DNA of 21,670 nucleotides from a bacterium. Lineage in GTDB: Bacteria; Sysuimicrobiota; Sysuimicrobiia; Sysuimicrobiales; Kaftiobacteriaceae. The stretch covers positions 1 to 21,670 of the forward strand of contig JBIOWP010000016.1 in assembly GCA_044868695.1 (NCBI GenBank), written 5' to 3'. The number at the start of each line of letters is the position of its first letter. Within the stretch, counting starts at the first letter, position 1. The notes beneath the pieces were generated by a model, which was given only the letters and a program-made list of their open reading frames with translations, had not been told where the DNA came from and ran no database searches. The position numbers and the translations under genes are program-made. This document shows, piece by piece, positions 988 through 20,184 of the stretch.

Positions 988-1572
988 TCATCGCGAGGAC
1001 ACCCGGACCAGTTCGGTGGAGAGCGCCATAATCTGATCGAAGGTCAGCAGCCCGGCGTGCTTACGCCAGATCCGACCGCTGGCGGTGATGAACACAGTGG
1101 TCGGCATCCCCAGGATTTCGTAATTTCGTATGGTTCTGATGTCGAAGGTCGTACCGGTGGGATAGGTGATCTTGAGCTGACGCAGCAACGCGCGCGCGTC
1201 GTCGCGGGATCCCAGGCCGATGAACGGACCGATATCGACGCCGATCAGGGCAAACTTCCGATCGGGCTGCTCGTAGAGCCGTTGAAAGTCCGGCATCTCC
1301 GCGCGGCAGGGCGGGCACAGTCCTGCCCAAAAGTTCAGGACCACCGGTTGGTGCTTCTTCTCCCAGAGGTCGGACAACGCGATCTTCTCGCCCCCGACTT
1401 CTTCCTGGCCCTGGTACATGGTGACCTCGATATCCGGTGCGGGCCGCAGCGACGGGGCTGAAGCGGCCTCCGGCGGACGTTGGACCAAAGGGAGGCGGAA
1501 AAGGACGAAGCCTGCGATTGCTGCGAGTGCGACAACCACGGACACGCCGATGACCGACGCTTTTGCGCGCAT
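988..1572 (-). CDS. TlpA/ResA-family membrane-anchored thiol-disulfide oxidoreductase
   Basis: N-terminal TM anchor, APDIEV, VVLNFWAGLCPPCRAEMP and GMPTTVFI. Start set at ATG 1572 (GAGGGG RBS) instead of GTG 1623. Confidence 0.88.
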   Translation of the reverse strand: MRAKASVIGVSVVVALAAIAGFVLFRLPLVQRPPEAASAPSLRPAPDIEVTMYQGQEEVGGEKIALSDLWEKKHQPVVLNFWAGLCPPCRAEMPDFQRLYEQPDRKFALIGVDIGPFIGLGSRDDARALLRQLKITYPTGTTFDIRTIRNYEILGMPTTVFITASGRIWRKHAGLLTFDQIMALSTELVRVSSR

Positions 1573-1682
1573 GGTTTCCCCTCTCGCACCTCTCAGAATG
1601 AGTATACGGTTCAACTCCACCACGGGCGGGAAATATTTCGCAGTAGTCTAGCGTACAACGGTCTGACAGGGGGTGAGGGACG

Positions 1683-1916
1683 GTGCCGAAGTCTGTCGTC
1701 GTCTACTCGCAGCCGGGCTGAGTGTTCTGCGGCAAGGTGAAGGAGTTCCTTCACCAGAAGGGCGTGTCGTACACGGAGAAGGATGTTAGTATCGACGAGC
1801 AGGCGATGAACGATTTGATGGAACGTGGCTTCTATGCCACGCCGGTCACCATTATTGACGGTGAAGCGGTCGTGGGGTTCAACCGCGCCCGGCTGGAACA
1901 GCTGCTGGGATCGTGA
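1683..1916 (+). CDS. Glutaredoxin/NrdH-like redoxin, predicted selenoprotein (U13-V-F-C16), 77 aa
   Basis: GAGGGA RBS, then GTG 1683 gives MPKSVVVYSQPG-TGA-VFCGKVKEFL...ATPVTIIDGEAVVGFN. The in-frame TGA 1719-1721 sits at the CxxC N-terminal Cys position and a SECIS-like hairpin follows. Confidence 0.9.
1736..1755 (+). promoter_or_regulatory. Putative bacterial SECIS element of the glutaredoxin gene
   Basis: GGTGAAGG-AGTT-CCTTCACC: perfect 8-bp stem starting 14 nt after the TGA, with G second in the loop. Confidence 0.8.
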
Positions 1917-2338
1917 TCGAGGAGTATGCCGTGGAGCTGACCTTGGACGGGTTGAAGCAAATTCTCGACTCGGCGAGGACGATCGCCGTCGTCGGGCTCT
2001 CCGACAAACCCGACCGTCCGAGCTACGACGTGGCCAGCTATCTCCAGCGGGTCGGATACCGTATCATCCCCGTCAACCCCACCATCACCAAGGTGTTGGG
2101 AGAGAAGGCATACAAGAGCCTGCGCGACATTCCGGACCGCGTCGATGTGGTGCAGATCTTCCGCCGCCCGCAGTACGTGCCGTCCATTGTAGAGGACGCG
2201 ATCGCGATTCGTGCTAAGGTCGTCTGGATGCAGCCCGGCACCGAGCATGAGGAGGCCGCGGCCAGAGCGGAAGTGGCCGGTCTTCGCGCCGTTGTCGGCG
2301 CGTGCATGATGACGGTCCACCGCATGACGCGGCACTAG
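1913..2338 (+). CDS. CoA-binding protein (YccU family)
   Basis: TIAVVGLSDKPDRPSYDVASYLQRVGYRIIPVNP, DVVQIFR, VWMQPG and CM motifs; GTGA overlap with the upstream stop. Confidence 0.92.
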   Translation: MIEEYAVELTLDGLKQILDSARTIAVVGLSDKPDRPSYDVASYLQRVGYRIIPVNPTITKVLGEKAYKSLRDIPDRVDVVQIFRRPQYVPSIVEDAIAIRAKVVWMQPGTEHEEAAARAEVAGLRAVVGACMMTVHRMTRH

Positions 2339-2347
2339 CATGGAGCA

Positions 2348-2797
2348 ATGCGCATAGGCGAGCTGGCGCGCCGCACCGGCGTTCCAGCGAAGACGATACG
2401 ATATTACGAGGCCATTGAGATTCTCTCGAAAGTGCCGCGCACGCCATCGGGATACCGGGACTATGACGCGCGCGCGGCTGACCGCCTCGAGTTCATTCGA
2501 AAGGCCAAGGATCTTGGCTTAACCCTGGCCGACATCCGCGAGATCTTCGATGTGCGCGACCATGGGGCTTCGCCGTGTCCTTACGTGGTGCACCTCCTTG
2601 ATCGCAAAATTGTAGAGCTGACCCACCGGATCAGAGGCATGCGGGCACTGCGAGATGAATTGACGAAGGCTCGAAAACGAGCGTCCACACTGTCCGCGGA
2701 AGAAATCGCTGCCCGTGCCCGCTTCTGCCACATCATCGAGAACCGCGCGCTGAGCGCACAACGCCCCCGACCGGTCATTACCCTCAGGCCTGTCTGA
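2348..2797 (+). CDS. MerR-family heavy-metal-responsive transcriptional regulator
   Basis: MRIGELARRTGVPAKTIRYYE HTH, SGYRDY, FIRKAKDLGLTLADI; Cys in SPCPYV and RFCHII. Confidence 0.93.
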   Translation: MRIGELARRTGVPAKTIRYYEAIEILSKVPRTPSGYRDYDARAADRLEFIRKAKDLGLTLADIREIFDVRDHGASPCPYVVHLLDRKIVELTHRIRGMRALRDELTKARKRASTLSAEEIAARARFCHIIENRALSAQRPRPVITLRPV

Positions 2798-2813
2798 CCT
2801 GTTGCGAGACCCC

Positions 2814-2845
2814 TTGACCTTCCAGCCCGCTGGAAGGTGTATGGT
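2814..2845 (+). promoter_or_regulatory. MerR-type sigma70 promoter/operator of the P1B-ATPase
   Basis: -35 TTGACC (2814-2819), 20-bp spacer, -10 TATGGT (2840-2845). Perfect dyad ACCTTCCAGC-CC-GCTGGAAGGT (2817-2838). Confidence 0.88.
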
Positions 2846-2878
2846 CCATATGGATGGACTGCTCGCAGGAGGTTTATT

Positions 2879-5290
2879 ATGGCGAAGATGCAGGTCAAAA
2901 TAGGCGGGATGTCCTGCTCATTCTGCGCGGAGACGCTGCGCAAGGCCGTAGGCCGGCTGGACGGCGTAGAGAAGGTCACCGTTAGCTTGGCGCACGAGGA
3001 GGCGCTGGTGCAGTTCGACCCTGATCGAGCTGCGGAGTCGCAAATTAAAGACGCCATCCGCAGCGTCGGCTACACCGTTCGGGACCCCAAGAAGGTGCGC
3101 ACGTTTGAGGACGAGGAGGCGGAACTGCGGCGCGAGCGCGGTCGGCTCCTCATTGCAGCTTCCTTCACCGTGATTTCCCTCGATTTGATGGTGCTGATGT
3201 GGCTGGGCCGGCCGCTTGCGGCGATGCGCTGGCTGATGCCGCTCCTGGCGATCGCCGCGATGTTCGGGCCCGGGTTGGACATCCTGCGGATGGCGGTTCC
3301 GTCGCTGCGCCGCGGCATCTTGAATCAGCACGTGCTCCTGGAGTTCGGCGCGTTTGCCGGGCTGATCGGCGGCACGCTAGGATTCTTCCGGCCGAGCTTC
3401 CCGATGGCAGATTTCTTCGCGGTTGCCGTCTTTATCACGACGTACCACATCCTCTCAGGGTACGCATCCCTCTTTGTACGCACGCGGGCATCCCAGGCGG
3501 TGCGCAAACTGATGGAACTGCAGCCGCCGACGGCTCGGGTGATCCGCGAGGGCAAGGAAGAGGAGGTCCCAATCGAAGCGGTCAGGCCCGGCGATGCGGT
3601 TCGCACTCGGCCGGGTGAATCGGTCCCTGTGGACGGCGTCGTTGTGGACGGTGCGTCCGCGGTTGATGAGAGTCTGGTCACCGGCGAGCCGATTCCAAAG
3701 GAGAAGGTAGCCGGCGACGAGGTCATCGGCGGCTCGATCAACCAGTCGGGCACGCTTGTCGTGCGGGTGACCAAGGTCGGCGAGGAGAGTTTCCTTCAGC
3801 AGGTGGCCCGGCATATCGAGGAAGCCAGGGCGCTGAAGCCCGGCATCATCCAGCTCGTCGATCGGATTCTGCAATGGTACGTACCAGGTGTACTGACCTT
3901 CGCCGGCGTCGCGGTCCTCATCTGGGTGGCCGCCGCGTGGCTGATCACGGGCCAGCCGAACTGGACGCGGGCAACGTTCGGGGCGCTGGCAGTGCTGGTG
4001 ATGGGGTATCCCTGCGCCCTGGGCATGGCCACGCCGCTGGCGATGATCCGGGGTGGAGGCGAGGCGGCAAGGAAAGGCATCCTGATGCGCAGCGGCGAGG
4101 CATTCCAGGTGTTCAAGGATGTCAAGAAGATCGTCCTGGACAAGACCGGGACCATCACGGTCGGGAAACCGCGCGTGGTTGGCCTCTTCACAATGGGCGG
4201 CGATCAGCGAGCCGTGCTGCGATTCGCAGCCAGCGCGGAAGCGCCGTCGGAACATCCACTGGCCAGGGCGATTGTCGATCGCGCCGACCGTGATGGGATC
4301 GAACTCATGGCTGCGGCGGACTTTGAAGCCGTGGCAGGTCGCGGCATCCGCGCGCAAGTCAGCGGCTCCACGGTGATGGTCGGGAGTTCCCATTTTCTGC
4401 GTGAGGAGGGTGTGGACTTCACATCCGCAGCGACGCAGATCCAGACCTGGGAACAGGAGGGCAGGACCGTGATCGGCGTCGCGCGTGACGGCCGGCTCCA
4501 GGGGCTGGTGGCGATTGCGGATGAGATCAAAGAGGACGCGAAAGAAGCGATCGACCGCCTCACACGCCTCGGCATGGAGCCGGTAATGATCACGGGTGAC
4601 AACGAGCGGACGGCCCGGGCCGTCGCTGGGGAGGTCGGCATCAGCGAGGTGTATGCACAGGTGCTGCCGCCGGAAAAGGCCGCGAAGGTACGCGCGCTGC
4701 AGGAGCAGGGTTTCCGCGTCGCCATGGTGGGGGATGGGATCAACGACGCGCCGGCACTGATGCAGGCGGACGTGGGGATCGCCATCGGAGCGGGAACCGA
4801 CGTCGCCATTGAATCCAGCGACATCATCATCGTGGGCGACCGGTTGGGCGCGGTCGTCGACGCCTACAACATCGGCCGCACCAGTTTTCGCAAGACCGTG
4901 CAAAATCTTACCCTGGCGTTCTCTTTCAATGGCATTGGGGTGCCTGCAGCGGTGACAGGTTTGGTGCACCCCGTATGGGCGATGGCGGCGATGGTGGCGA
5001 GCGTGAGCACGGTGCTTCTGAATTCCTTCGGTGGGCGCCTGCTGCCTAAGCCGCGGGTCGCCGCGCCTGAAAAGAAGCTTGAGAAGATTACCCTCAAAGT
5101 CCCTTCGATGCACTGCCAGCGGTGCGCGGGCAACCTCAAAGAAGCGATCGGCAAGGTCCCGGGGGTCGTATCCGTCGGGGCCGATCCTCGGGAGAAGCTC
5201 GTAACCGTCGCCGTGCGAGATGGCGGGATAGGACGTGAGGACATCTGCGCCGCGATCACCGCCATTGGGCACGTGTGCGGCGAAGAGTGA
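2879..5290 (+). CDS. Heavy-metal-translocating P1B-type ATPase (CopA-like) with N- and C-terminal HMA domains
   Basis: AGGAGG RBS before ATG 2879. GMSCSFC HMA, TGE(P), DKTGT, SEHPLA, GDGINDAPAL and C-terminal SMHCQRC HMA. The TM6 motif is YPC. Confidence 0.95.
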   Translation: MAKMQVKIGGMSCSFCAETLRKAVGRLDGVEKVTVSLAHEEALVQFDPDRAAESQIKDAIRSVGYTVRDPKKVRTFEDEEAELRRERGRLLIAASFTVISLDLMVLMWLGRPLAAMRWLMPLLAIAAMFGPGLDILRMAVPSLRRGILNQHVLLEFGAFAGLIGGTLGFFRPSFPMADFFAVAVFITTYHILSGYASLFVRTRASQAVRKLMELQPPTARVIREGKEEEVPIEAVRPGDAVRTRPGESVPVDGVVVDGASAVDESLVTGEPIPKEKVAGDEVIGGSINQSGTLVVRVTKVGEESFLQQVARHIEEARALKPGIIQLVDRILQWYVPGVLTFAGVAVLIWVAAAWLITGQPNWTRATFGALAVLVMGYPCALGMATPLAMIRGGGEAARKGILMRSGEAFQVFKDVKKIVLDKTGTITVGKPRVVGLFTMGGDQRAVLRFAASAEAPSEHPLARAIVDRADRDGIELMAAADFEAVAGRGIRAQVSGSTVMVGSSHFLREEGVDFTSAATQIQTWEQEGRTVIGVARDGRLQGLVAIADEIKEDAKEAIDRLTRLGMEPVMITGDNERTARAVAGEVGISEVYAQVLPPEKAAKVRALQEQGFRVAMVGDGINDAPALMQADVGIAIGAGTDVAIESSDIIIVGDRLGAVVDAYNIGRTSFRKTVQNLTLAFSFNGIGVPAAVTGLVHPVWAMAAMVASVSTVLLNSFGGRLLPKPRVAAPEKKLEKITLKVPSMHCQRCAGNLKEAIGKVPGVVSVGADPREKLVTVAVRDGGIGREDICAAITAIGHVCGEE

Positions 5291-7662: not shown

Positions 7663-9111
7663 TCATTCTGCGCAGCATGAGAGCCGCTCGACGTCTTTGA
7701 AGAATGACAGGGCCGCGATCTTGAGGGCCTCGGCCATGGTCGGATACACGTGCACCATGTCGATGAAATCGTAGACGGTGGCCTTGAAGCGCAGCGCCAT
7801 GGCGGCTTCGTGAATCACCTCTCCAGCGTCGCGCCCGACCATCGAGACGCCAAGGACGCGCTTGGAATCCCAGTCGAGCACCATCTTGATGAGCCCCCGT
7901 GTGTCCCGGACTGCGCCGGTCCGTGGAACGATCCGCATCGGGACCGTGCCGCAGTTGCAGCGAAACCCGCGTTGATTGGCCTCTTCATCTGTCAAGCCTA
8001 CGACGGCCACCTGCGGATCTGTAAAGATGGTGCGCGGAATGACCGTGTGGTCCACCGTCCGCTTTTCACCGTTGAGAGCGTTGGATGCAGCGATGACCCC
8101 ATCGTGCGCACCGACAGGCGTCGCCATCTGACTGTAGGTATGCACGCCGATCACATCCCCGGCGGCCCAGATGTTTGGTGCTGTTGTCGCCAAGACCTCG
8201 TTCACGACGATCGCGCCGCGCCCGTCGGTCTTGACGCCGACGTGCTCCAGGCTAATGCCATCGGTATTAGGGGTTCGTCCAGCCGCAATGAGAAGTCGAT
8301 CGGCTTTGAACGCGCGCTCGCCGCCGTGCGTCTCACCGGCGACTACGACCGTGGCGCCGTCCCGTGAGACACGTCGGACGGTGACTCCTGTCATGAGCTT
8401 GACGCCTTCTTCCTCCAGGATCTCCCTGATCACTTGAGAGACCTCTGGTTCGTACCCTGGAAGCACCCGATCGCTGCGCTCAAGGATGGTAACTGCGGCG
8501 CCGAAGCGCTGAAACATCTGCGCAAGCTCGAGTGCGATGTACCCGCCACCGATAATGACCAGGGACTTGGGGAGTTCCCACAACTCCTCTGATTCCCCCG
8601 AGGTCAGCAGGTCAGAGGTGAGGTAGGGGACGGAATCAAGTCCCTCAATCGGTGGGACGACGGGTCGAGACCCTGTGGCAATGAGGTACTGACGACCGAC
8701 CAGCCGCCGCCCGTTGATTTCAACTGCCCCATCCCGCGTAAAGGCTGCATGCCCCATGTAGACTTTGATGCGATCTGAGTCGTGGACAATAGATTGATAT
8801 TTCTTGTCTCGGTAGTCATGAATCACACCATCTTTCTGCCGGACGAGCTCCTTGAAGTTCAAGTCCATGCCACGAGGAAGCAGGCCAGGAAAGCGCGGGT
8901 GGTGCGCTTCCCAATAGATCCGAGCAGCTTCGATCAGGTTCTTACTTGGGAGGCAGCCGCGATTCACGCAGGTGCCCCCCAGCGTGCGAGATTCCGTCAT
9001 GGCGGCGGTCTTGCCGAGTTCCGCGGCCCGGATGGCCGCTGCGAAGGCTGTGGAGCCGGAGCCGAGGATGACCAGGTCGTAGGACTCGACGGACACCGGC
9101 GTCCTAGCCAT
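7663..9111 (-). CDS. merA: Mercuric reductase (no N-terminal NmerA domain)
   Basis: [41 protein letters not shown] and C-terminal LSCCAE. AAGGAGG RBS before ATG 9111. Confidence 0.95.
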
Positions 9112-9577
9112 GGCGGCCTCCTTGGGACCTGCGACTGAGCTGCCCGGCAACCGACGTTCTTGGTTTGTGGAAGCTTTCGATCAGTGTGAAGCACACGCAG
9201 TCCTCAGCCGACCGCGCGTCGATAGTGACCCGCCCCTTCAGGCGCCGCCGCAACCGATGAAGGTCCCCTTTGAGGCGACTCAGCTGTGCAATCTGCTCCT
9301 CGACCTTGCTCAAATTACGGGCGACGATCTCCACGACATGTTGGCACGGCGCCGCTCCTTCATCGCGAACCGCCAGGATGCGGCGGATATCGGCGAGCGA
9401 CATGCCCAGGGCTTTCGCGCCGGCGATGAAGTGGAGCCGGTCGACTGCCTCGGCAGCGTACAGGCGGTAACCAGTTGGAGTGCGGCCTGCCGGTTGGACG
9501 AGTCCAACCCGGTCGTAGTAGCGGAGGGTTTTCGGCTCCAGCCCAGCCAGGGAGCCAAGCCGGCCAATGGTGAGCAT
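9104..9577 (-). CDS. merR: MerR-family regulator within the mer operon
   Basis: [25 protein letters not shown] and TGYRLY; Cys in APCQHV and DCVC; AGGAGG RBS; 8-nt overlap with merA. Confidence 0.88.
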
Positions 9578-9600
9578 CGTTCCTCCTAACTCTTGGTTCC

Positions 9601-10263
9601 TTACGCATCTACGTGCACACTAAGGGCTTCGTCGAAGTTCCGGGCGTTGGTCAGCTGCCCGAGGGCGAATGCTTCGTCGACAGAAAGAAGAAAGGTTCCC
9701 GCGTGCCGTGAGATCCAGGACGCCGCAACGTCGGTGGAGCGAAAGAAATGAACGAAATGGCAGAAGTTCGCGATGACATCACGGTCGAAAGTCCGACCAG
9801 GGGTGAGGAAGGAGACCACGGCGGTAGATGGGTCGACCCACTTGACGCCATCTGGCCCGACCTCAAGCGAAATCTGGCCTTTGGTTACTGGGCAGACGGA
9901 CTCAATCCGTGCAGTCTTGCCGAGAATACCCGGGATAAACAGGCTATCCCATGCGCACCACGTGTAGAGGGTGTGTCCGTTGACAATGAAGCGGTGAGGA
10001 GGCATCTCGACCACGGTGAGGCCGCCGTACCCGATCACCGCGTTCTGGTCATCGAAGAACACCGGCCACATGGCCAAGGTGTCCCTGATCGTGTCGACAG
10101 GTAAGGCGGCGACCCCAGCGAGCTGGTTGAGGGGCACGGGATTCCCTTCGCTCAGCAAACGGTAGAGGACAACGGCGATCTTCTGGCCAACCGCGTCGAA
10201 CCGCGGTACCGCCCCGACAATCTTGTCAGCCAATTCGGTGACTTTCGCTGAAACCTGGTGCAT
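9601..10263 (-). CDS. merB: Organomercurial lyase
   Basis: LYTWCAWDSLFIP, IESVCPVT and FCHFVHFFRS motifs. AGGAGG RBS before ATG 10263. Confidence 0.93.
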   Translation of the reverse strand: MHQVSAKVTELADKIVGAVPRFDAVGQKIAVVLYRLLSEGNPVPLNQLAGVAALPVDTIRDTLAMWPVFFDDQNAVIGYGGLTVVEMPPHRFIVNGHTLYTWCAWDSLFIPGILGKTARIESVCPVTKGQISLEVGPDGVKWVDPSTAVVSFLTPGRTFDRDVIANFCHFVHFFRSTDVAASWISRHAGTFLLSVDEAFALGQLTNARNFDEALSVHVDA

Positions 10264-10294
10264 GCACGGCCTCCTGACGTGATTTGGTGTTCCC

Positions 10295-10326
10295 ACAATA
10301 GACCTTGAACCTAGGTTTAAGGTCAA
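10295..10326 (-). promoter_or_regulatory. MerR-type promoter/operator of merB-merR-merA
   Basis: Minus strand: TTGACC (10326-10321), 20-bp spacer, TATTGT (10300-10295). 24-bp dyad GACCTTGAACCT/AGGTTTAAGGTC with one mismatch (10301-10324). Confidence 0.85.
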
Positions 10327-10365
10327 GTGCGCTATCATGCCTTAACCTTATCCGCCCCCTGGAAC

Positions 10366-11075: not shown

Positions 11076-11180
11076 AATGGACGCCCGTTCGCTATCGAGG
11101 ACTAGCTGTGGCGGCGGTCTGCTAGACCGGGAATGCACGACGGCCGAAAGCGTTTAAGGAGAGAGGCATCTCATCACACG

Positions 11181-12203
11181 ATGGTGGTGAATCGGGTGGC
11201 GCGAGTGGCCGGACCGAAGGAAGGCGAGACGATCCCTGTCTTTAGGGCCCGCGACCAGTTTGGCCGGTGGCAGACACTGGAGACGATCGCGGGGCCGGCC
11301 GGGGCACTAATCGCCTTCATGCGCAGTGCAGATTGGTGACCGTACTGCAAAGGCCAGCTCGTGGAGCTGGCGAGACATGCAGACCGGCTGCGAGCGAGGG
11401 GATACGGGATCTGTAGTATCAGTTATGATCCTGTCGAAGTCTTGCGGGAGTTCGCGGACCGCCGTGGGATCACGTATCCGATGCTGTCAGACCCGGACTC
11501 CGCGATCATCCGCACGTTCGGCCTGCTCAACGAGACGGTCGAGCCGGGTACGCGCGATTATGGCGTGCCTCATCCGGTCATGTTCTTTGTGGACGGGTCT
11601 GGCACGGTGATCCGAAAGTACATGGAGGAGCGGTACTTTCACCGCCGGGCGCTCGCGACGATTCTTGCCGAAGACGGCGAACCGTCTGATCTCCAGACCG
11701 TCTGGCAGGTCGACGGTGAGCAGGTCGCCATACGGACGCTGACCCTGCAGCGGGAGGTCTACCCGGGGAACCGGTTCGCGCTGCTGGCCGAAGTGGAGCC
11801 CAGGCCGGGGCTGCACGTCTATGCGCCGGGCGCCGGCGCGGACTATCGCCCGCTCACGCTGCACATGAATGCGCAGCCATACGTGGCCGCCGGGGAGCCG
11901 GTCTACCCGGCCTCGGACGAGACCTGGACATCTCCGCTTGAGGAACAGGTTCCGGTTTACACGCGCCTCCTGCGCGTCCGCGTGGAGGTAGTGCTCGGCA
12001 CTCGTCAAGAGTTAAAGCCGGTCTATGACGGTGGAGGCAGGCTTGAAGTGACTGGCACCCTGTCATTTCAGGCATGCAGCCAAACGATCTGCTGGCCTCC
12101 ACAGGATGTGCCTCTGACCTGGCCGCTTACGCTGCTTCCACCTGATCTGGAGCGTCCTCCTGAACACCTCCAGCGGGAACGATTGATGCAGCGGAACGGC
12201 TAA
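11181..12203 (+). CDS. AhpC/TSA (peroxiredoxin-like) redoxin fused to a DsbD N-terminal-like domain, predicted selenoprotein (U-P-Y-C)
   Basis: ORFs 11133-11339 and 11361-12203 are in one frame and joined by TGA 11337-11339: GPKEGETIPVFRARDQFG...FMRSADW-U-PYCKGQLVEL...SISYD...YPMLSDPDS...PHP. C-domain has LHVYAPG and FQACSQTICWPP. Start uncertain (11133, 11181 or 11196). Confidence 0.88.
11353..11371 (+). promoter_or_regulatory. Putative bacterial SECIS element of the AhpC/TSA fusion gene
   Basis: GCCAGCTC-GTG-GAGCTGGC: perfect 8-bp stem starting 13 nt after the TGA, loop starting with GT. Confidence 0.8.
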
Positions 12204-12327: not shown

Positions 12328-13749
12328 ATGGACTCCGTGCTCGTCGAACACGACACCTCTGTGCCGGCCCCCGAAGGTGGTTCGCCGGTCAACCCCGTGC
12401 GCCGGCTTCTCCGGCTCGCTTGGCCTGTGGTCATTTCCCGGTCGAGCCAGGTGGTGGTCGGCGTCTCGGACGCGATCATGGTCGCGCACCTCGGCGAAGC
12501 GGCGCTCGCAGCCACGACCACGGGTGCGGCCAACACCTTCAACCTGCTCATCCTCCCGATGGCGCTCGTCTTTATCGTCAGCAGTTTCAGCTCCCAGTTC
12601 ACCGGCGAGGGCAATCCGGTTGCTGCGCGCCGCTACGGATGGTATGGCCTGGGTGTGGCGTTCATCACAGAGCTGATGTGTCTGGCGAGCATTCCCGCCG
12701 TACCGGGTTTCCTGCGCACCATCGGGTATCAAGGTGAGGTCCACGGGCTGATGAGCGCCTACCTGCAGGTGCGGCTCCTGACGGGTGGAGCGGCGGTGGG
12801 CATGGAGGCACTGGGCAACTTCTATGGAGGGCTGGGGAACACGCGGCTTCCCATGGTGGTCAGCGTGGCGGCGATGGCCCTCAACGTCTTCGGCAACTGG
12901 GTGCTCATCAACGGGAAGCTGGGCGCGCCTGCTCTGGGCGTCCGGGGGGCGGCGCTGGCAAGCGCCCTCGCCACGCTCATCGCATTCACCCTCTTCCTCA
13001 CCCTCTTCCTGGCCGGGCTCGGCGCGCCGCGCGTCTTCCGAAGGGTCCGCCTGGTCTGGAGCGAGTTCGTCCGCATGCTGCGCTTCGGCCTCCCCGTGGG
13101 TCTCAACTGGTTCTTCGAGTTCCTGGCCTTCAGCTTCTTCATCAACGTCCTTGTCGCCGGGCTCGGCACCACGACGCTGGCCGCGTTCATGATCGTGCTG
13201 CAGATCAACTCGGTGTCGTTCATGCCGGCGTTCGCCGTCGCCAGCGCGGGAGCCATTCTGGTCGGCCAGGCCATCGGCGCCGGGGGGCAGCGCGATGTCC
13301 CGCACGCCGTCGGCCTGACGGCGAAGGTGGTCGGAGCCTGGCAGGGTGCCGTCGGCCTCTCGTATCTGGTCCTGCCCGGCCTGTTCATGGCTCCGTTCGT
13401 GGATGAGCGCACGACGACGCCGGAGCTGCTGCGGATCGGTACTACTATGCTGATGCTGTCGGCAAGCTGGCAGCTGTTCGACGCCGCCGCCATGACGCTC
13501 TCTGAGGCGCTCCGGGCCGCGGGCGACACCGCGTTTTCCATGTGGGCGCGGGTCGTGATCGCGTGGGCGGTGTTCGTCCCGGGGGTGTGGGTGTCCGTCA
13601 AAGTGCTGGGCGGCGGCTACATCGAGGCGACGCTGTGGCTCGTCGCGTACATCGCCCTGCTCGCCGGCATCCTCGCGTGGCGATTCAGGAGCGGGGCGTG
13701 GAAACGCATCAACCTGACCGGTCGAGCGGCGATGCCCGCGACGGAGTAG
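12328..13749 (+). CDS. MATE-family efflux transporter
   Basis: GAGGAG RBS. RLLRLAWP, DAIMVAHLGEAALAA, GNTRLPM, PALGVRGAALAS and LRAAGDT; about 12 TM segments. Confidence 0.93.
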   Translation: MDSVLVEHDTSVPAPEGGSPVNPVRRLLRLAWPVVISRSSQVVVGVSDAIMVAHLGEAALAATTTGAANTFNLLILPMALVFIVSSFSSQFTGEGNPVAARRYGWYGLGVAFITELMCLASIPAVPGFLRTIGYQGEVHGLMSAYLQVRLLTGGAAVGMEALGNFYGGLGNTRLPMVVSVAAMALNVFGNWVLINGKLGAPALGVRGAALASALATLIAFTLFLTLFLAGLGAPRVFRRVRLVWSEFVRMLRFGLPVGLNWFFEFLAFSFFINVLVAGLGTTTLAAFMIVLQINSVSFMPAFAVASAGAILVGQAIGAGGQRDVPHAVGLTAKVVGAWQGAVGLSYLVLPGLFMAPFVDERTTTPELLRIGTTMLMLSASWQLFDAAAMTLSEALRAAGDTAFSMWARVVIAWAVFVPGVWVSVKVLGGGYIEATLWLVAYIALLAGILAWRFRSGAWKRINLTGRAAMPATE

Positions 13750-13802
13750 GGCTGGGAAAGCAGGGGCCTTCTCCCGGCGCTGCGAATCACTCTTCCAGAC
13801 CC

Positions 13803-15056
13803 ATGCGCAGGATTCTGGCGGTTGCATCCCTCGTCATCCTGGCGGCCGGTCCGGCCGCGCGATCGGCCGATCTCACGACGCTGCGGTTCACCATCTGGAG
13901 CGGCAACCAGGCCCACCTCGACCTGCTGAACGGGATCGCCGCGGCCTACCGGGCTTCGCACCCGAATATCGACGTCAGATATGATGTCGTCCCTTTCAGC
14001 GACTACGTTCAAAAGATCACGATCCAAATCGCTTCAGGAACGGCGCCCGATCTGGGCTGGCTGCTCGAAACCTCGGCGCCGACCTTCATCAACGCCGGCG
14101 TCCTGGCCGACGCGTCCGGCAGCCTGCGGGGAGACCGGTCATACGCCTTTGAGGACCTCTCGGCGCCGGCGCTGGAACTCTGGGTGCAGAAGAACGCGGT
14201 CTACGGCGTGCCGTTCTCCACGTCGCCGTTCATCGTCTTTTTCAACCGGGACCTGTTCAAGGCGGCGAAGCTGACGCCCCCGGATCAACTTCCGGCGCGG
14301 AACTGGACGTGGGAGGCGCTGAAGCGCAGCGCGTATGCCATCTCGCGAACCGCCGGATCCGGGATCTACGGCTTCGAGAGCGTCGACGGCCAAGGCTATG
14401 ACGTGCGGGTCTGGCATACGTTGATCCCCGTCGTCCGGGCCTACGGGGCCGATGCGTGGACCGGAGGGACGTGCGGCCTGTCGTCTCCTGAAGCCGTCCG
14501 GGCCGTCCAGTTCTATCACGACATGATCTTCAAGGACCGCAGCGTCGTGCCGCCCGGGGAGCAGGGCGATTTCTTCTCCGGACGCTCGGCGATGACGATT
14601 ACGCAGCTGAGCCGTGTGTCCAAGCTCGAAGGGGCGAAGTTCTCGTGGGGGATCGCGCCTCTTCCCGCCGGCCCGGCAGGGCAGGTTGGTGTGATCGGGC
14701 AGGCGGCCATCGTCGTGTTCGCGAAGAGCGCGCACCGTCAGGCAGCGGTCGAGTTCCTCAAGTTCATGACGAACGCGGAGAACACTGCCAAGATGGCCAA
14801 GTTCTTTCCGCCGGTGCGTGCATCCGTCCTCACCTCACGCGATTTTCTCACGGCAAACCCGCTGGTCTCCCCGGAGCAGATGAAAATTGTCGCCGACGGC
14901 ATTCGCACGGGGAAAGTTTTGCCCAGCCACCCGAACTTTCCCCGGATCGAGGCGGCGGCGCGGCCGGTGTTCGACCGCCTCTGGCGGGCGGACGCCGACG
15001 TGCGGGCGGTGCTGGGAGACGTCTGCGGTGTGATTCAGCCGCTGCTCAAGGAGTAG
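13803..15056 (+). CDS. Carbohydrate ABC transporter substrate-binding protein
   Basis: Signal peptide MRRILAVASLVILAAGPAARS; ASGTAPDL, YGVPF, FFNRDLFKAA, WTWE and WGIAPLPAGP. Confidence 0.9.
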   Translation: MRRILAVASLVILAAGPAARSADLTTLRFTIWSGNQAHLDLLNGIAAAYRASHPNIDVRYDVVPFSDYVQKITIQIASGTAPDLGWLLETSAPTFINAGVLADASGSLRGDRSYAFEDLSAPALELWVQKNAVYGVPFSTSPFIVFFNRDLFKAAKLTPPDQLPARNWTWEALKRSAYAISRTAGSGIYGFESVDGQGYDVRVWHTLIPVVRAYGADAWTGGTCGLSSPEAVRAVQFYHDMIFKDRSVVPPGEQGDFFSGRSAMTITQLSRVSKLEGAKFSWGIAPLPAGPAGQVGVIGQAAIVVFAKSAHRQAAVEFLKFMTNAENTAKMAKFFPPVRASVLTSRDFLTANPLVSPEQMKIVADGIRTGKVLPSHPNFPRIEAAARPVFDRLWRADADVRAVLGDVCGVIQPLLKE

Positions 15057-15062
15057 CCGCTC

Positions 15063-15950
15063 GTGGCCCGGAGGCGGGGCTGGACGCGGCTCGACGCGTG
15101 GCACGCCTACCTCCTCGTCAGCCCGCAGGTCCTGGGGTTCCTCGCGTTCGTGGTCGGGCCGCTCATTGCGGTCTTCGTCTTCAGCCTGCAGGCCCGCGAC
15201 CTGCTCACGGGCCGGGTCGCGTTCGTCGGCGCGAGCAACTTCGGGGCGGTCCTGAGCGACCGCCTCTTCTACACGGTGCTGACGAACAGCCTTACGTTCA
15301 CCGCCGGCCTCGTTGTCCTCAACATAACCCTCGCGCTGTCGCTCGCCCTGCTGCTTGCGCGCGGCTTCCGGGGGAGCACGGCCTTCCGCACGCTGTTCTT
15401 CGCCTCCGTCGTCACGTCGGCCGCGGCCTGGGCGATCGTGTGGCGGTTCATCCTTCAGGGAGAGCAGGGCGTCCTGAACCAGTTCCTGGCGCTGGTAGGG
15501 ATCCACGGCCCGAACTGGCTGCGGGAGCCGCGCTGGGCCATGGCCTCCGTCATCGTCACCCGCGTGCTGAAGAATGTCGGCCTCAACATGACCATCTACC
15601 TGGCCGCGCTCAAGTCCATCCCTGAGGAATACGCCGAAGCCGCCCGCGTGGACGGCGCAGGCAGCTGGCGCGTGCTGCGCGCCATCACGATTCCGCTGCT
15701 GGCTCCGACCACGCTGTTCGTCGCCATCGTCACCGTCACAAGCGCCCTGCAGGTCTTCGACCACATTCTCCTGATGACGGCGGGCGGGCCGGAGAATGCC
15801 ACGAACGTCCTCGTCTACTACATCTACCGGCAGGCCTTCCAGTTCTTTGACATCGGCTACGCGAGCGCTCTGGCGGTTTTCCTGTTCGCCGTGGCGCTCC
15901 TGCTGACCCTGGCCATGTGGCTGGCCCGGGGACGGACGGCGACGGCATGA
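15063..15950 (+). CDS. Carbohydrate ABC transporter permease
   Basis: FVGASNF, FRTLFF, EAA loop IPEEYAEAARVDGA, and GYASALA. Confidence 0.92.
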   Translation: MARRRGWTRLDAWHAYLLVSPQVLGFLAFVVGPLIAVFVFSLQARDLLTGRVAFVGASNFGAVLSDRLFYTVLTNSLTFTAGLVVLNITLALSLALLLARGFRGSTAFRTLFFASVVTSAAAWAIVWRFILQGEQGVLNQFLALVGIHGPNWLREPRWAMASVIVTRVLKNVGLNMTIYLAALKSIPEEYAEAARVDGAGSWRVLRAITIPLLAPTTLFVAIVTVTSALQVFDHILLMTAGGPENATNVLVYYIYRQAFQFFDIGYASALAVFLFAVALLLTLAMWLARGRTATA

Positions 15951-16795
15951 GCTCCCGGTGGACCGGCACGTGGACCCGGCGCGCGGCCTGGTACGCGGCG
16001 CTCCTCGTCCTGGGGGTGCCGTTTCTCTTCCCGTTCCTGTGGATGGTGTCGGCGGCGTTCAAGGGGCCGAGCGAGATCTTCGCCTTTCCGCCCCAGCTAA
16101 TCCCGGACCGGTGGCACTGGCAGAACTTCGTCGAGGTCTTTCGCTACCAGCCGTTTGCCCGCCAGTACGCCAACAGCCTGTACATCGCGGTGCTGGTGAC
16201 GGTCGGAACGCTGTGTGTGGCGGCGCCGGCGGGGTACGCGTTCGCGCGGCTGCGGTTTCCCGGCCGCACCGGCCTTTTCCTGGTGCTGCTCAGCGCCCTC
16301 ATGATGCCGACCGAAGTAACCATCATCCCCAACTTCTTCTTCATGAAGACGCTCGGGCTGGTCAACACGCACGCGCCGATCATTGCACTGCCAATTGCGG
16401 GCGCGAACGGGGTGGTGGCGATGTTTCTGCTGCGGCAGTTCTTTCTCGGGCTCCCGAGGGAATTGGAAGACGCCGCGATGATCGACGGCCTCGGCCGCCT
16501 CGGCGTCTTCTGGCGGGTGGCCGTGCCCCTCGTGAAGCCCGCCATGAGCGCCGTCGCGATCCTCACGTTCCTGTACAGTTGGAACCTGTTCCTAGAGCCG
16601 CTGGTGTTCATCAACGATCTCGGGTTGTTCACCCTCCCCCTGGCGCTGAACAACTTCACCGACACCTACGGCCTTCCGGTCTGGCACCTGCAGCTGGCGG
16701 CGACGACACTGTCCGTGCTGCCGGTCCTGGCCGTCTACGTGATCGAGCAGCAGCGGATCGTCGATAGTTTCGTTCTATCCGGCATGAAGGGGTGA
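15947..16795 (+). CDS. Carbohydrate ABC transporter permease
   Basis: ATGA overlap with the upstream stop; AGYAFARLRFPGR, LPRELEDAAMIDG, WNLFLEPL and SGMKG terminus. Confidence 0.92.
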   Translation: MSSRWTGTWTRRAAWYAALLVLGVPFLFPFLWMVSAAFKGPSEIFAFPPQLIPDRWHWQNFVEVFRYQPFARQYANSLYIAVLVTVGTLCVAAPAGYAFARLRFPGRTGLFLVLLSALMMPTEVTIIPNFFFMKTLGLVNTHAPIIALPIAGANGVVAMFLLRQFFLGLPRELEDAAMIDGLGRLGVFWRVAVPLVKPAMSAVAILTFLYSWNLFLEPLVFINDLGLFTLPLALNNFTDTYGLPVWHLQLAATTLSVLPVLAVYVIEQQRIVDSFVLSGMKG

Positions 16796-16799
16796 CCCT

Positions 16800-18407
16800 A
16801 TGGAAGCCCGTGCTGAGATTCTCGTCGTGGGTGGAGGATTGGGCGGTGTCGCAGCGGCTCTCGCCGGCTCGCGCATGCGCCGCAAGACGATCCTGGCGTC
16901 GCCGCACGCATGGCTCGGGGGCCAGCTCACGACGCAGGGCGTTCCTCCCGACGAGCACCCCTGGATCGAGATGTTTGGAGCGACGGAATCCTACCGGCAA
17001 CTGCGTGAGGCCGTGCGAACGCATTACCGCCGGCACTATCCGCTCACGCCCGCCGTACGGCGAGATCCGTACCTGAATCCCGGCAACGCGTGGGTCAGCC
17101 GCTTGGCCCACGAACCGCGGGTGGCCGCTGAGGTCATTGACGATCTCCTCGCCCCCCACGAGTCTGACGGGATCCTCACCGTCCGGCGCGGCTACCGGCC
17201 CGCAGCCGTCGAGACTGTTGGAGACATGGTGCGCGGTGTGACCCTGACCGGACCGGACGGAAATCCCCTGACCGTCACGGCCGATTTCGTGCTCGACGCG
17301 ACCGAACTGGGCGACCTGCTCGCGCTGAGCGGCACAGAGCACGTAACCGGAGCGGAGTCGCAGGCGCAGACCGGCGAGCCTCACGCAGCGCCCGAGCCCG
17401 GCCCACTCAACCAGCAGGGGTTCACCTGGGTGTTTGCGGTTGAGCACCGGCCCGGCGAGGATCACAGGATCGGCAAACCTGCGATGTATGACTTCTGGCG
17501 TTCGTACCGGGCGAGGTTCTGGCCCGGCCCGCACCTGGGATGGGACTACCCCCATCCGATGACGCTGCGGACCGTCCGGGCGCTGCTGGACTTCGACGAT
17601 CCCAGCCAGGCGTATTCGGGGCGGATCGGCCGGGTGCCGGTTCCCCCTGAGGATCGTGTCAATTTCTGGACCTACCGGCGGATCCTGCATGCCCGGGGCC
17701 TCGAGGGGCGGTTTCGAGACGTCGTCATCGTGAACTGGCCGCAGAACGACTACTGGCTGCAGCCGCTGGTCGGCAGCGGGGAGGAGACACGCGCGAAGGC
17801 GCTCGATGAAGCGAAGCAGTTGAGCCTGTCGTTGCTCTACTGGCTGCAGACAGAGGCGCCGCACGCCGGCGGCGGGACCGGATACCCCGGGCTCCGGCTG
17901 CACCGCGAGACCTTTGGAACGCGCGACGGCATGGCGCACGAGCCCTACATTCGCGAGTCGCGCCGGATCACAGCCCAGTTCACGGTGCTCGAGCAGCACG
18001 TCTCGGCCGCCGCCCGCAAGGAGGCCGGTCCCGCGAAATTCGCGGACAGCGTGGGCGTCGGCGCGTACCGGATCGATCTCCACCCCAGCACCGGCGGCGA
18101 CGGGTACATCGACCTGGACTCCTGGCCGTTTCAGATTCCGCTGGGGGCGCTTGTTCCGATCCGCATGGAGAATCTGCTGCCGGCGGCCAAGAACATCGGC
18201 ACGACCCACATCACCAATGGCTGCTTCCGCCTGCATCCTGTCGAGTGGAACATCGGTGAAGCTACGGGACTGCTCGCCGCATTTTGCCTGGACCGTAGGG
18301 TTGGGCCTCACGCGGTGCGGGCGTCGGCGGACCTGCTGGCGGACTTTCAGCGGCTCCTCACCGCCGAGGGCATCGAGCTGGACTGGCCGGCGATTCGTCC
18401 CCTGTGA
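16800..18407 (+). CDS. FAD-dependent oxidoreductase
   Basis: ILVVGGGLGGVAAAL Rossmann motif, LGGQLT, LDATELGDL, PYIRESRRI, FQIPLGALVP and RLHPVEWNIGEA. Confidence 0.9.
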   Translation: MEARAEILVVGGGLGGVAAALAGSRMRRKTILASPHAWLGGQLTTQGVPPDEHPWIEMFGATESYRQLREAVRTHYRRHYPLTPAVRRDPYLNPGNAWVSRLAHEPRVAAEVIDDLLAPHESDGILTVRRGYRPAAVETVGDMVRGVTLTGPDGNPLTVTADFVLDATELGDLLALSGTEHVTGAESQAQTGEPHAAPEPGPLNQQGFTWVFAVEHRPGEDHRIGKPAMYDFWRSYRARFWPGPHLGWDYPHPMTLRTVRALLDFDDPSQAYSGRIGRVPVPPEDRVNFWTYRRILHARGLEGRFRDVVIVNWPQNDYWLQPLVGSGEETRAKALDEAKQLSLSLLYWLQTEAPHAGGGTGYPGLRLHRETFGTRDGMAHEPYIRESRRITAQFTVLEQHVSAAARKEAGPAKFADSVGVGAYRIDLHPSTGGDGYIDLDSWPFQIPLGALVPIRMENLLPAAKNIGTTHITNGCFRLHPVEWNIGEATGLLAAFCLDRRVGPHAVRASADLLADFQRLLTAEGIELDWPAIRPL

Positions 18408-18496
18408 CGGCAGGCCCGCTCCGACAACAGGAGGGGACGCGCCGCTCACGAACTAGCACGACATCCCCAGCTGAGCCGTTAATGGGAGGGAGACGC

Positions 18497-20170
18497 ATGT
18501 CGGGTCGAACCACCGCTGCGTTGCTGACCATATCCGCTGTGTTCGCCGCGATGTGGGCCGGGGTCCCGGCGACCTCTGCCGCCGGCGCCTGGAGCGGTAG
18601 CGTCCGTTTCACCAATCAAGTGGCCAGTTCGCCGTTTACCGGCGGGGGCTATCCGGTTCCGCCCGGCGCCAGCGCGCCGCTGCCCGGGACCTGCCGCCCC
18701 GGGCTGTACAACTCGAACCGGTCGGAGTCCTGGATCGCGGTGCAGCCGGGTACTGAGAACCTGGTTGGAACCTCCAAGGTGTTCTTCGAGACGTTCAGCA
18801 CGCTGTACGACTTCCACCTCGGTTCGTACACGATCCTGAACGGCAAGCCCGTGGCCAACAACCTGGTCCAGGGGTATGAGTGTATCTCTACCGGCACTCA
18901 GGCCATGCCGCCGAGCTGGATGAACAACACTGATCCCAACGCGGACTTCGACACGCAGGGCCGGGTGTATCAGGTGACGCTCCCGTTCAATCCGTGGTGG
19001 GTGAACCACATCCATCCGGACGGGGCCCTTGGGGTCTCCTATAGCGACGACCTGGGCCGGACGTGGGTGACCGGCAACGGCGGGACTTACCTGGACCGCG
19101 TCCCGAACCAGTCGTCCAAGACGATCGGGGGCGTCGAGGACAAGCAGTGGATCGCCGTCAACCACTTCCCCGCCAGCGAGTTCCGGGACCACGTGTACGC
19201 GATGTGGGCGGTGTTTAACGGATTTGCCGTCGAGATCCGCTACAGCATCTCCCGAGACCGCGGGCTGACGTTTTCGCCGGTCCGGAAGCTCACGGTGCCG
19301 GCACAACAGAGCGGGCCCGCCAACACGTACGTGTACCCCTCGGTCGACGCGGCGGGGCACGTCTACGTCGCCTTCGCGTCGTTTCCTCCGTGCTGCGTGA
19401 CGCCGGCGGCGATTTACATCACCCGCTCGACAGACGACGGGGAGACGTGGAGTCCATTTGTCCAAGCGGCCTCCGGCATCGGCGTCGTCTCGACCGGGAT
19501 GCTGCCCAACACCACCTTCCGCGACGGGATCGTGGAGCATTTCGCGGCGAGTCCGACCTACCCCGGACACCTCTACCTGGTGTACGAGGACTGGGACGGC
19601 ACGCAGATGGACGTCAAGTTCATACAGTCAACCGACGGCGGCCTCAGCTGGTCGCAGCCGATAATCGTGAACGACAACGTGGATCAGCCCGGCGCGCCCA
19701 GCGACCAGTTCCAGCCGTCGGTTGCCGCGGGCCCGAACGGTGCGGTAGCCGTCGCATTTTACGACCGCCGCCTTGCCTGCCCGTCGGACTCGAGCATCCT
19801 GCCGGACCATGCGGGCCGGACGAACTTCTGCATCGACGTGTCCCTCCAGGCCTTCAAAGACAGCGGTGGCGGTGCCGCGCCGGTCGGCGGCAATGTCCGG
19901 ATCACGCAGTTTACGTGGGATCCGGAGCAGCCTGGGCAGACGGTGGACGGGCTGGATCAGATGGCGTGTGCGGCGCACGAGAACCCGTGCACGAGGAACG
20001 CGTTCATCGGGGATTACTTTGGACTGGCGGTGTCAGCGAAGAGCATCTATGCGCTGTTTGTGTCGACGCACTACCCGTCAGACGTGACGGGCGACGACGG
20101 AGGGCCGGTATTCTACCAGCAGCAGGTGCTGGGGACGGTGTCGAGAGGTGCGTTCGGAAGAGGGTACTAG
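18497..20170 (+). CDS. Secreted BNR/Asp-box repeat (sialidase-fold beta-propeller) protein
   Basis: GGGAGG RBS before ATG 18497; signal peptide. Asp-boxes SDDLGRTW, SRDRGLTF, STDDGETW and STDGGLSW; also DKQWI, DQFQP and FIGDY. Confidence 0.82.
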   Translation: MSGRTTAALLTISAVFAAMWAGVPATSAAGAWSGSVRFTNQVASSPFTGGGYPVPPGASAPLPGTCRPGLYNSNRSESWIAVQPGTENLVGTSKVFFETFSTLYDFHLGSYTILNGKPVANNLVQGYECISTGTQAMPPSWMNNTDPNADFDTQGRVYQVTLPFNPWWVNHIHPDGALGVSYSDDLGRTWVTGNGGTYLDRVPNQSSKTIGGVEDKQWIAVNHFPASEFRDHVYAMWAVFNGFAVEIRYSISRDRGLTFSPVRKLTVPAQQSGPANTYVYPSVDAAGHVYVAFASFPPCCVTPAAIYITRSTDDGETWSPFVQAASGIGVVSTGMLPNTTFRDGIVEHFAASPTYPGHLYLVYEDWDGTQMDVKFIQSTDGGLSWSQPIIVNDNVDQPGAPSDQFQPSVAAGPNGAVAVAFYDRRLACPSDSSILPDHAGRTNFCIDVSLQAFKDSGGGAAPVGGNVRITQFTWDPEQPGQTVDGLDQMACAAHENPCTRNAFIGDYFGLAVSAKSIYALFVSTHYPSDVTGDDGGPVFYQQQVLGTVSRGAFGRGY

Positions 20171-20184
20171 CATCGCACCGCGGC

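Follow-up and report, generated by a model that had tools for sequence, protein, structure and literature searches.

Table 1 of a 2026 review (PMC13188914) counts the UxxC glutaredoxins (PF00462) among the bacterial selenoprotein families with experimental verification, and a glutaredoxin family containing selenocysteine (Sec) also figures in the accessible text of PMC1088965 and PMC1794560. The closest described structure is that of cGrx1 from Clostridium (Alkaliphilus) oremlandii (PDB 7C10, 7C12 and 7C13). The accessible part of PMC7642778 presents cGrx1 as a native selenoprotein with a catalytic Sec and a U/C-P-X-C motif, and proposes it as the reductant of methionine sulfoxide reductase A (MsrA). 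Similar in fold are the thioredoxin-like small redoxins BC3987 of Bacillus cereus and Cp9 of Clostridium pasteurianum, the latter of which carries electrons from thioredoxin reductase (TrxR) to a peroxiredoxin along a Cp34-Cp9-Cp20 chain (accessible text of PMC3720550). NrdH-redoxins have the same fold, and the UXX-star proteins (NF041212, NF041211, NF041114 and NF047338) are small glutaredoxin-like selenoproteins.

The gene described here, grx(U), occupies positions 1683–1916 on the plus strand of the window, the whole 21,670-nt stretch of DNA that was analyzed. It has 77 codons and encodes a glutaredoxin fold with the predicted active site U13-V-F-C16 and a cis-proline position at P54. cGrx1 is the best sequence match in the PDB (E 9.3e-18), and the two proteins share the position of the catalytic residue (13) and a VKEFL stretch, which in the window gene encodes an RNA hairpin. 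The window protein has the motif UVFC (U-[LMVIF]-F-C in its clade), as opposed to U/C-P-X-C in cGrx1, and the msrA gene of the host genome encodes an unlinked Cys form, both of which speak against orthology with cGrx1. In further contrast to cGrx1, the glutathione (GSH) synthesis genes searched for, GshB and GCS2, were not found in the host genome, and around the window clade lie CoA-binding, AhpC/TSA(U) and metal genes.

With the Sec glutaredoxin family, grx(U) shares a PF00462 score over the cut-off, the UxxC motif and an in-frame SECIS element with a G in a small loop. The window clade differs from the known Sec glutaredoxins in spanning several phyla, in being recorded as proteins of 58–65 residues and in its recurring copper and mercury context. 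BC3987 and Cp9 match the product at E 1.2e-14 with a TM score of about 0.9; unlike grx(U), BC3987 has a Cys-only CPPC motif and no SECIS. The UXX-star models give weak matches (NF041212, 49.4 against a cut-off of 66; NF041211, 43.2 against 100; NF041114, 24.5 against 72; NF047338, 29.5 against 97), all of them under the cut-off, and the grx(U) product differs from these proteins in keeping its resolving Cys.

With the TGA read through, the PF00462 match improves from 39.8 to 57.1 bits (cut-off 22.9) and gains profile positions 1–10. The AlphaFold model, computed from a 50-row alignment, has a pLDDT of 96.2, with a strand at residues 5–9, contributed by the read-through part, and a helix at residues 14–26. 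Foldseek superposes it on cGrx1 (7C10) with a TM score of 0.93, an rmsd of 0.7 Å and 47% identity. The product thus shows the features that define a Sec glutaredoxin, namely the PF00462 match, UxxC at the N-terminus of helix 1 and the cis-proline. No NCBIfam model scores over its cut-off, the best being the YruB-type TIGR02196 (72.9, below 88.55).

The preliminary description had called the product an NrdH/glutaredoxin with a UVFC active site. The glutaredoxin half of this name stands. The NrdH half does not, as TIGR02194 (61.8, below 85.75) and PRK10329 (25.9, below 131) both fall short; no class Ib ribonucleotide reductase gene is found among the neighbors in the window or the recurrent neighbors of homologues. 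NrdH-redoxins match at E values of 2e-12 to 6e-10. In a search for fused forms, 2 of the 43 candidates were Grx-PDZ proteins and none joined the redoxin to a metal or CoA domain, which is weak evidence. The grx(U) product is a member of the already known UxxC glutaredoxin kind of selenoprotein, not an NrdH.

The in-frame UGA codon and its hairpin

The open reading frame runs from GTG 1683 to the stop codon TGA 1914–1916 and yields 77 residues when the internal TGA is read as U. A Shine-Dalgarno-like sequence, AGGGGGTGA, lies at 1668–1676 on the plus strand, and AGGAGG-type motifs precede the homologous starts; in the closest relative (L050/L021), AGGAGGTGA followed by ATG is found at the position matching the ribosome-binding site and start of the window gene. 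A start farther upstream is barred by an in-frame TGA at 1674–1676. The internal TGA, the predicted Sec codon, occupies 1719–1721 (+) as codon 13, with the Cys16 codon at 1728–1730. The extension from GTG 1683 behind a good ribosome-binding site, as first proposed, is therefore confirmed. So is the claim that the 64-residue reading frame, the form in which the gene stands in databases, is without the first strand and the attacking residue, since residues 5–9 and U13 come from the read-through part.

Contigs from runs X1 (possibly the source of the window DNA), X3 and X5 (second study) span codon 1719–1721 with no other letter, and the listed pieces of X6 miss it. The concern that the sequence data might not support the TGA is met by this agreement of two studies. 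Nor does the genome lack Sec machinery, the other ground on which the reading could have failed. In the host genome (G000, 95% complete), selA (E 7e-147), selB (over the cut-off) and the tRNA-Sec gene selC (78.3 bits) form a cluster on contig C84; the selD gene, which itself has an in-frame TGA, is on contig C146.

Conservation of the TGA was followed in 41 genomes, the host and 40 relatives, and the matches were pooled with 80 GTDB loci to give 92 distinct loci. A grx(U) match occurs in 26 of the 41 genomes (host included). At 62% identity and above there are 23 matches, and all but one of them (22) have a single internal TGA. In the pooled set the TGA is present at 66 loci (host included), always within UxxC and in 63 cases within U-[LMVIF]-F-C. 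The remaining 26 loci have a Cys codon, TGC or TGT, aligned opposite the TGA, and C13 of PDB 7C10 aligns there too. Both checks proposed in the preliminary description, for a Cys opposite the TGA and for conservation of the TGA among relatives, come out in its favor, the latter over about seven phyla. The Sec loci belong to CSP1-3/Sysuimicrobiota-type, Acidobacteriota, Chloroflexota, Rokubacteria, Nitrospirota and Deinococcota records and to one Bacillota genome. Residues C16 and P54 are invariant in the alignment, and the 12 residues upstream of the TGA and the start are conserved among the loci.

The only locus with a Cys codon at 50% identity or more is L040 (68%), where the hairpin is lost (3 of 8 pairs kept) and the genome still has selA. 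In a quick, poorly resolved tree of 77 columns with many forks open, which omits L045 (cut) and L095 (no clear N-terminus), L040 is nested among the Sec rows. The U-x-x-C redoxin clade is multi-phylum and widespread in soil and the subsurface. One homologue of 81 residues, P0054, the single one of the 120 listed that falls outside 58–65 residues, has a W at the UGA position and the motif W-G-P-C-H; here the UGA was probably called as Trp, in a different active-site subfamily.

The predicted bacterial SECIS element lies at 1736–1755 (+). It is a perfect 8-bp stem closed by an AGUU loop, GGTGAAGG-AGTT-CCTTCACC, which starts 14 nt past the TGA, as the preliminary description had noted, with the loop beginning at 22 nt. 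Its position just past the UGA and its small apical loop with a G are those expected of a bacterial selenoprotein gene. The segment 1730–1765 folds with a z-score of −3.24, none of 200 shuffles being equally stable. Genome-wide, a perfect Watson-Crick stem of at least 8 pairs with a G-containing loop of 3–5 nt follows 132 of 64,101 TGA triplets (0.2%), and a looser rule admits 1,597 of 14,640 TGA candidates (11%). Since the genome has 67% GC and so many candidates pass the looser rule, the hairpin alone is weak evidence, and its conservation carries the weight. For the same reason, a genome-wide hairpin and motif scan proved too noisy as the sole finder of selenoproteins. A codon-filtered scan overlooked some selenoprotein candidates, and one candidate, C151:6841, turned out to end at an ordinary stop.

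A hairpin at least as stable as −5 kcal/mol forms in 65 of 65 scored Sec loci (mean −10.9) and in 15 of the 26 loci with Cys (mean −5.6). The register of the window's hairpin is kept with at least 7 of 8 pairs in 33 of the 65, and most of the others have a stem shifted by one base with a GUU loop; because about half of the homologues use this shifted register, the RNAalifold consensus differs from the window hairpin. Covariation is weak, with two pairs changing on both sides, no better than in slid controls. The codons that form the hairpin are nearly fixed in the 60 ungapped Sec loci (V19 GTG in 58, E21 GAG in 60 and L23 CTT in 58). CTT makes up 4.7% of the Leu codons of the host genome, and the codons of L42 and L45 vary freely. 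SelB would bind the hairpin and insert Sec at U13.

The conserved TGA, the presence of selA, selB, selC and selD, the conserved hairpin and the agreement of the contigs together lead us to read grx(U) as a hidden selenoprotein gene, and it is almost certain that its in-frame UGA is read as Sec. With the fold as further support, the original proposal, a glutaredoxin-like protein that contains Sec and has its SECIS within the reading frame, is upheld.

Other likely selenoproteins are present in the host genome, each with a hairpin that has a G early in the loop. They are SelD (C146:10011, L143), a protein disulfide oxidoreductase with U-P-H-C (C96:1054, L139; TIGR02187 227.7, over 185), an OsmC-like protein (C63:23908, L142) and a protein with U-P-V-C that we take to be GrdB-like (C52:19372, L140). 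The window itself holds a second hidden selenoprotein candidate at 11181–12203 (+), AhpC/TSA(U), which combines AhpC/TSA and DsbD_N-like parts and has a W-U-P-Y-C motif at TGA 11337–11339. Its hairpin, GCCAGCTC-GTG-GAGCTGGC, lies at 11353–11371, 13 nt past the UGA, and read-through lifts its AhpC-TSA profile score from 49.1 to 81.2 bits.

Neighbors and predicted regulation in the window

Upstream of grx(U) and divergent from it is a gene for a TlpA/ResA-like thiol-disulfide oxidoreductase with a CPPC motif (988–1572, minus strand; profile matches), followed by a membrane protein gene (108–977). A tlpA gene is near the Sec gene in 8 of the 33 closest loci. Directly downstream, at 1913–2338 (+), is a gene for a CoA-binding protein (CoA_binding_2; PF13380, 144 bits), with a likely start at GTG 1931 after GAGGAG and a conserved Cys in a C-terminal xxCM motif. 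It is followed at 2348–2797 (+) by a MerR-family metal-responsive regulator (PF13411/PF09278) that stays below all subfamily cut-offs, and at 2879–5290 (+) by a P1B copper-type heavy-metal ATPase with two HMA domains (TIGR01525 562.7, over 346.25; TIGR01511 465.4, over 397), starting at ATG 2879 after AGGAGG. A predicted MerR-type promoter/operator of the ATPase is located at 2814–2845 (+), where TTGACC and TATGGT are separated by a 20-nt spacer and a perfect dyad with 10-bp arms (22 bp) occupies 2817–2838. A long spacer and a dyad are the hallmark of MerR promoters.

The preliminary description had placed grx(U) at the head of a transcription unit leading to a metal sensor and an ATPase. The gene order holds, as do the identities of the regulator and the ATPase; the immediate downstream neighbor, the CoA-binding protein, was absent from that account. 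No plus-strand terminator is found in 1500–3000, and one transcript from grx(U) to the ATPase is possible, though not established, since the ATPase has a predicted promoter of its own.

Farther along, a merB-like gene (179.5 against 193), a MerR-family gene and merA (535.4, over 454.45) lie at 7663–10338 on the minus strand in the order merB-merR-merA, and the metal island of the window also includes an ArsP-type permease gene and an ArsR-family gene. From 12328 to 21597 we recognize what are presumably a MATE-like transporter, a sugar-type ABC transporter, an FAD-dependent oxidoreductase-like gene, a secreted sialidase-like repeat protein and a GAF/GGDEF-like membrane protein.

A predicted ECF-sigma promoter, GGAAA-N19-GTA, precedes grx(U) at 1629–1655 (+). 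It is a variant of the SigH/SigR pattern GGAAT-N18/19-GTT, given as the corynebacterial SigH consensus in the accessible text of PMC10012870. A scan for sigma-70 promoters found nothing. The related pattern G[AG]AAT[AG]-N17-GT[AC] occurs in 14 of 34 upstream regions of CSP1-3/Sysuimicrobiota type, compared with a mean of 0.3 and a maximum of 3 in shuffles, a test that is partly circular as the pattern was first picked by eye. Across the genome, a GRAAT-N18-GT[AT] site precedes 19 of 3,105 genes, no more than with spacers of 16 (17 genes) or 22 (22 genes), and the number does not stand out from the other spacers (6–22).

The host genome encodes a SigH-like sigma factor (202.8 bits, below the cut-off of 251.55) and an RsrA anti-sigma factor (67.3, over 62.5). 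The SigH/SigR-like sigma gene is found at L147:1432-2306 (contig C107) and has its own GGAAT-N19-GTT site; sites of the form GGAAT-N18/19-GTT lie before trxB and trxA as well. Similar GGAAT-type sites precede genes that we take to be clpC, clpP, htrA and a sufT-like gene. This set of sigma factor, RsrA and sites suggests an actinobacterial-style thiol-stress regulon in a non-actinobacterial genome. The site of grx(U) ends in GTA, not GTT, and the genome has other ECF sigma factors; control of grx(U) by a SigH/SigR-type factor is plausible, in which case its transcription would rise under thiol stress. A GGAAT-N17-GTT site also lies at 11130–11154, before AhpC/TSA(U). The palindrome GAAATATTTC at 1630–1639 overlaps the predicted −35 element of grx(U) and also gives a minus-strand GAAAT-N19-GTT site toward tlpA, so that the two promoters are possibly back-to-back.

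Metal genes around the selenocysteine loci

Neighbors were counted at the 64 Sec loci other than the window's own (L020) and L045, with flanks that are often short. Strict metal genes, defined as P1B ATPase, HMA, CsoR, MerR, MerB, MerT and CopZ-N genes within about 4 kb, are present near 29 of the 64 Sec loci, versus 0 of 26 Cys loci and a background of 1.5% in the host genome. With MerA-like and ArsR genes included, the count is 31 of 64 against a background of 2.2%. The strict hits comprise 12 of 37 loci of own-order/CSP1-3 type, 9 of 14 in Acidobacteriota, 4 of 6 in Chloroflexota, 2 of 2 in Rokubacteria, 1 of 1 in Nitrospirota, 1 of 2 in Deinococcota and 0 of 2 in others. The other 35 loci have no metal gene in the DNA available, where flanks are often short. 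The link to metal genes noted in the window therefore holds across relatives, in six phylum-level groups. The Sec loci of kin do not count as independent, and most of the Cys controls are remote, Grx3-type genes of other phyla, so the result stands as a strong association and not as a test of function.

The arrangements vary by lineage, are often on the same strand and often have metal genes directly upstream of grx(U). We find merR-merT-merP-copZN-grx in L102 and L103, csoR-merTP-reductase-copZN-dsrE-like-grx in L079, csoR-merTP-grx in L093 and HMA(U)-HMA-grx in L080, with an ATPase farther on. In L157 the order is merB-merR-grx, the Sec glutaredoxin standing at the place of the window's merA.

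Some neighbors of grx(U) in these lineages themselves appear split by TGA or incomplete. In Rokubacteria (L080:3227-3583 and L083:91-447), an HMA/MerP-like gene just upstream of grx(U) is apparently split by a TGA at C-Q-A-U; the L080 gene scores 56.6 bits for HMA on read-through and 71.9 against 95 for NF041115. From its sequence, this split gene likely encodes a metal-binding selenoprotein. In Chloroflexota, a small redoxin-like frame without an N-terminus directly follows grx(U) (L081:4372-4590 and L082:4036-4173), and L079:6499-7050 is a split gene that we take to be AhpD-like. These frames and the split gene are possible further selenoproteins.

Candidate functions of the selenoredoxin

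The grx(U) product would reduce oxidized or metal-blocked cysteines, likely including those of neighboring copper- and mercury-handling proteins. The selenolate of U13 would attack the target disulfide and C16 would resolve it, and the physiological targets would be the CxxC motifs of HMA domains, the P1B ATPase, MerT/P and MerB. Recharging by TrxR rather than by glutathione is likely, as the host genome has two TrxR genes over the cut-off and as GshB, GCS2 and BshC were not found in it (95% complete; the search covered these three). In line with this, the product has VVGF at the site of GG-D, the glutathione motif of glutaredoxins, and Cp9 provides a precedent. One of the two TrxRs, or a neighboring flavoprotein disulfide reductase, would re-reduce the product. 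As a whole, the mechanism of a TrxR-recharged, thiol-stress-induced Sec redoxin that maintains the cysteines of its metal-handling neighbors has, in our estimate, a probability of about 0.5.

A wider proposal is put forward more tentatively, at somewhat worse than even odds. The U-x-F-C selenoredoxins may form a clade, extending over several phyla, that has the unannotated grx(U) product as its founding member and whose proteins serve as dedicated accessories of mercury- and copper-resistance operons (merR-merT-merP-copZN-grxU, csoR-merTP-grxU, merB-merR-grxU and grxU-merR-copA). They would keep metal-binding CxxC motifs reduced or remove Hg/Cu from these motifs, in hosts that lack glutathione and under a SigR/RsrA-like circuit outside Actinobacteria.

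The strongest competing explanation, which we consider rather unlikely, makes grx(U) a general electron shuttle of thiol stress, delivering to AhpC/TSA(U), to the CoA-binding protein or to both, with the metal genes merely sharing a stress island. In close kin the steady neighbor is indeed the CoA-binding gene, with its conserved Cys, and not a metal gene. It is near grx(U) in 25 of the 64 Sec loci, all within the 33 closest, and it also adjoins L040. AhpC/TSA(U) lies directly downstream of grx(U) in five loci including the closest relative, and the order flavoprotein disulfide reductase-grx(U)-AhpC/TSA(U) in L053, L057 and L060 recalls the route from reductase to peroxiredoxin in Cp34-Cp9-Cp20, at least as set out in the accessible text of PMC3720550; the SigH/SigR-like promoter would also suit a general stress role. 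Against the shuttle, none of the 31 more distant Sec loci has the CoA-binding gene, whereas metal genes recur in varied arrangements in six groups, often directly upstream on the same strand.

Direct binding of Hg(II) or Cu(I) by the U-x-x-C pair, which would make the protein a metal sink or chaperone instead of a catalyst, is improbable. The placement of grx(U) inside mer/cop-type clusters would fit such a binder, as would the suggestion, in the accessible text of PMC13188914, that Sec may coordinate metal in UXX-star and Sao proteins. The catalytic glutaredoxin layout is nevertheless kept, with C16 and P54 invariant and cGrx1 superposing closely, and dedicated HMA chaperones adjoin grx(U).

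Less probable again is a GSH-dependent glutaredoxin that recycles MsrA in the manner of cGrx1. The proposed role of that closest structure, the msrA gene of the host genome and a glutathione-reductase-like gene upstream in L079 (312 bits, below the cut-off of 480) point in this direction. The UVFC motif and the failure to find GshB and GCS2 in the host genome point away from it, as does an msrA with no internal stop on a contig other than that of grx(U). Finally, the view of the TGA as a genuine stop codon or a sequencing error, leaving a pseudogene or the annotated 64-residue protein, draws on the 58–65-residue length of 119 of the 120 homologues among the matches listed (120 of 217), and is effectively refuted by the TGA at the catalytic site of 66 loci, the conserved start and 12 upstream residues, the Sec machinery, the concordant contigs of two studies and the loss of strand 1 and the attacking residue in the short form.

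Against this background, the link to metal operons is the only part of the finding that may be new. Our literature searches turned up no paper on the U-x-F-C clade, and Kim 2011 or the mSystems article 'Novel selenoprotein neighborhoods' could already describe it. The main text of BSepDB makes no mention of glutaredoxin, the accessible part of the preprint by Haft and Gwadz reports no selenoprotein found in mercury resistance, and predicted metal-related selenoproteins are listed in the accessible text of the 2026 review (PMC13188914).

Databases cut the U-x-x-C redoxin clade at its catalytic site, which makes the clade invisible and leaves it with no NCBIfam model over the cut-off. Should the metal link prove functional, selenocysteine would have a place inside mercury and copper resistance operons, and the clade would provide a compact bacterial system in which Se-Hg/Cu chemistry can be tested.
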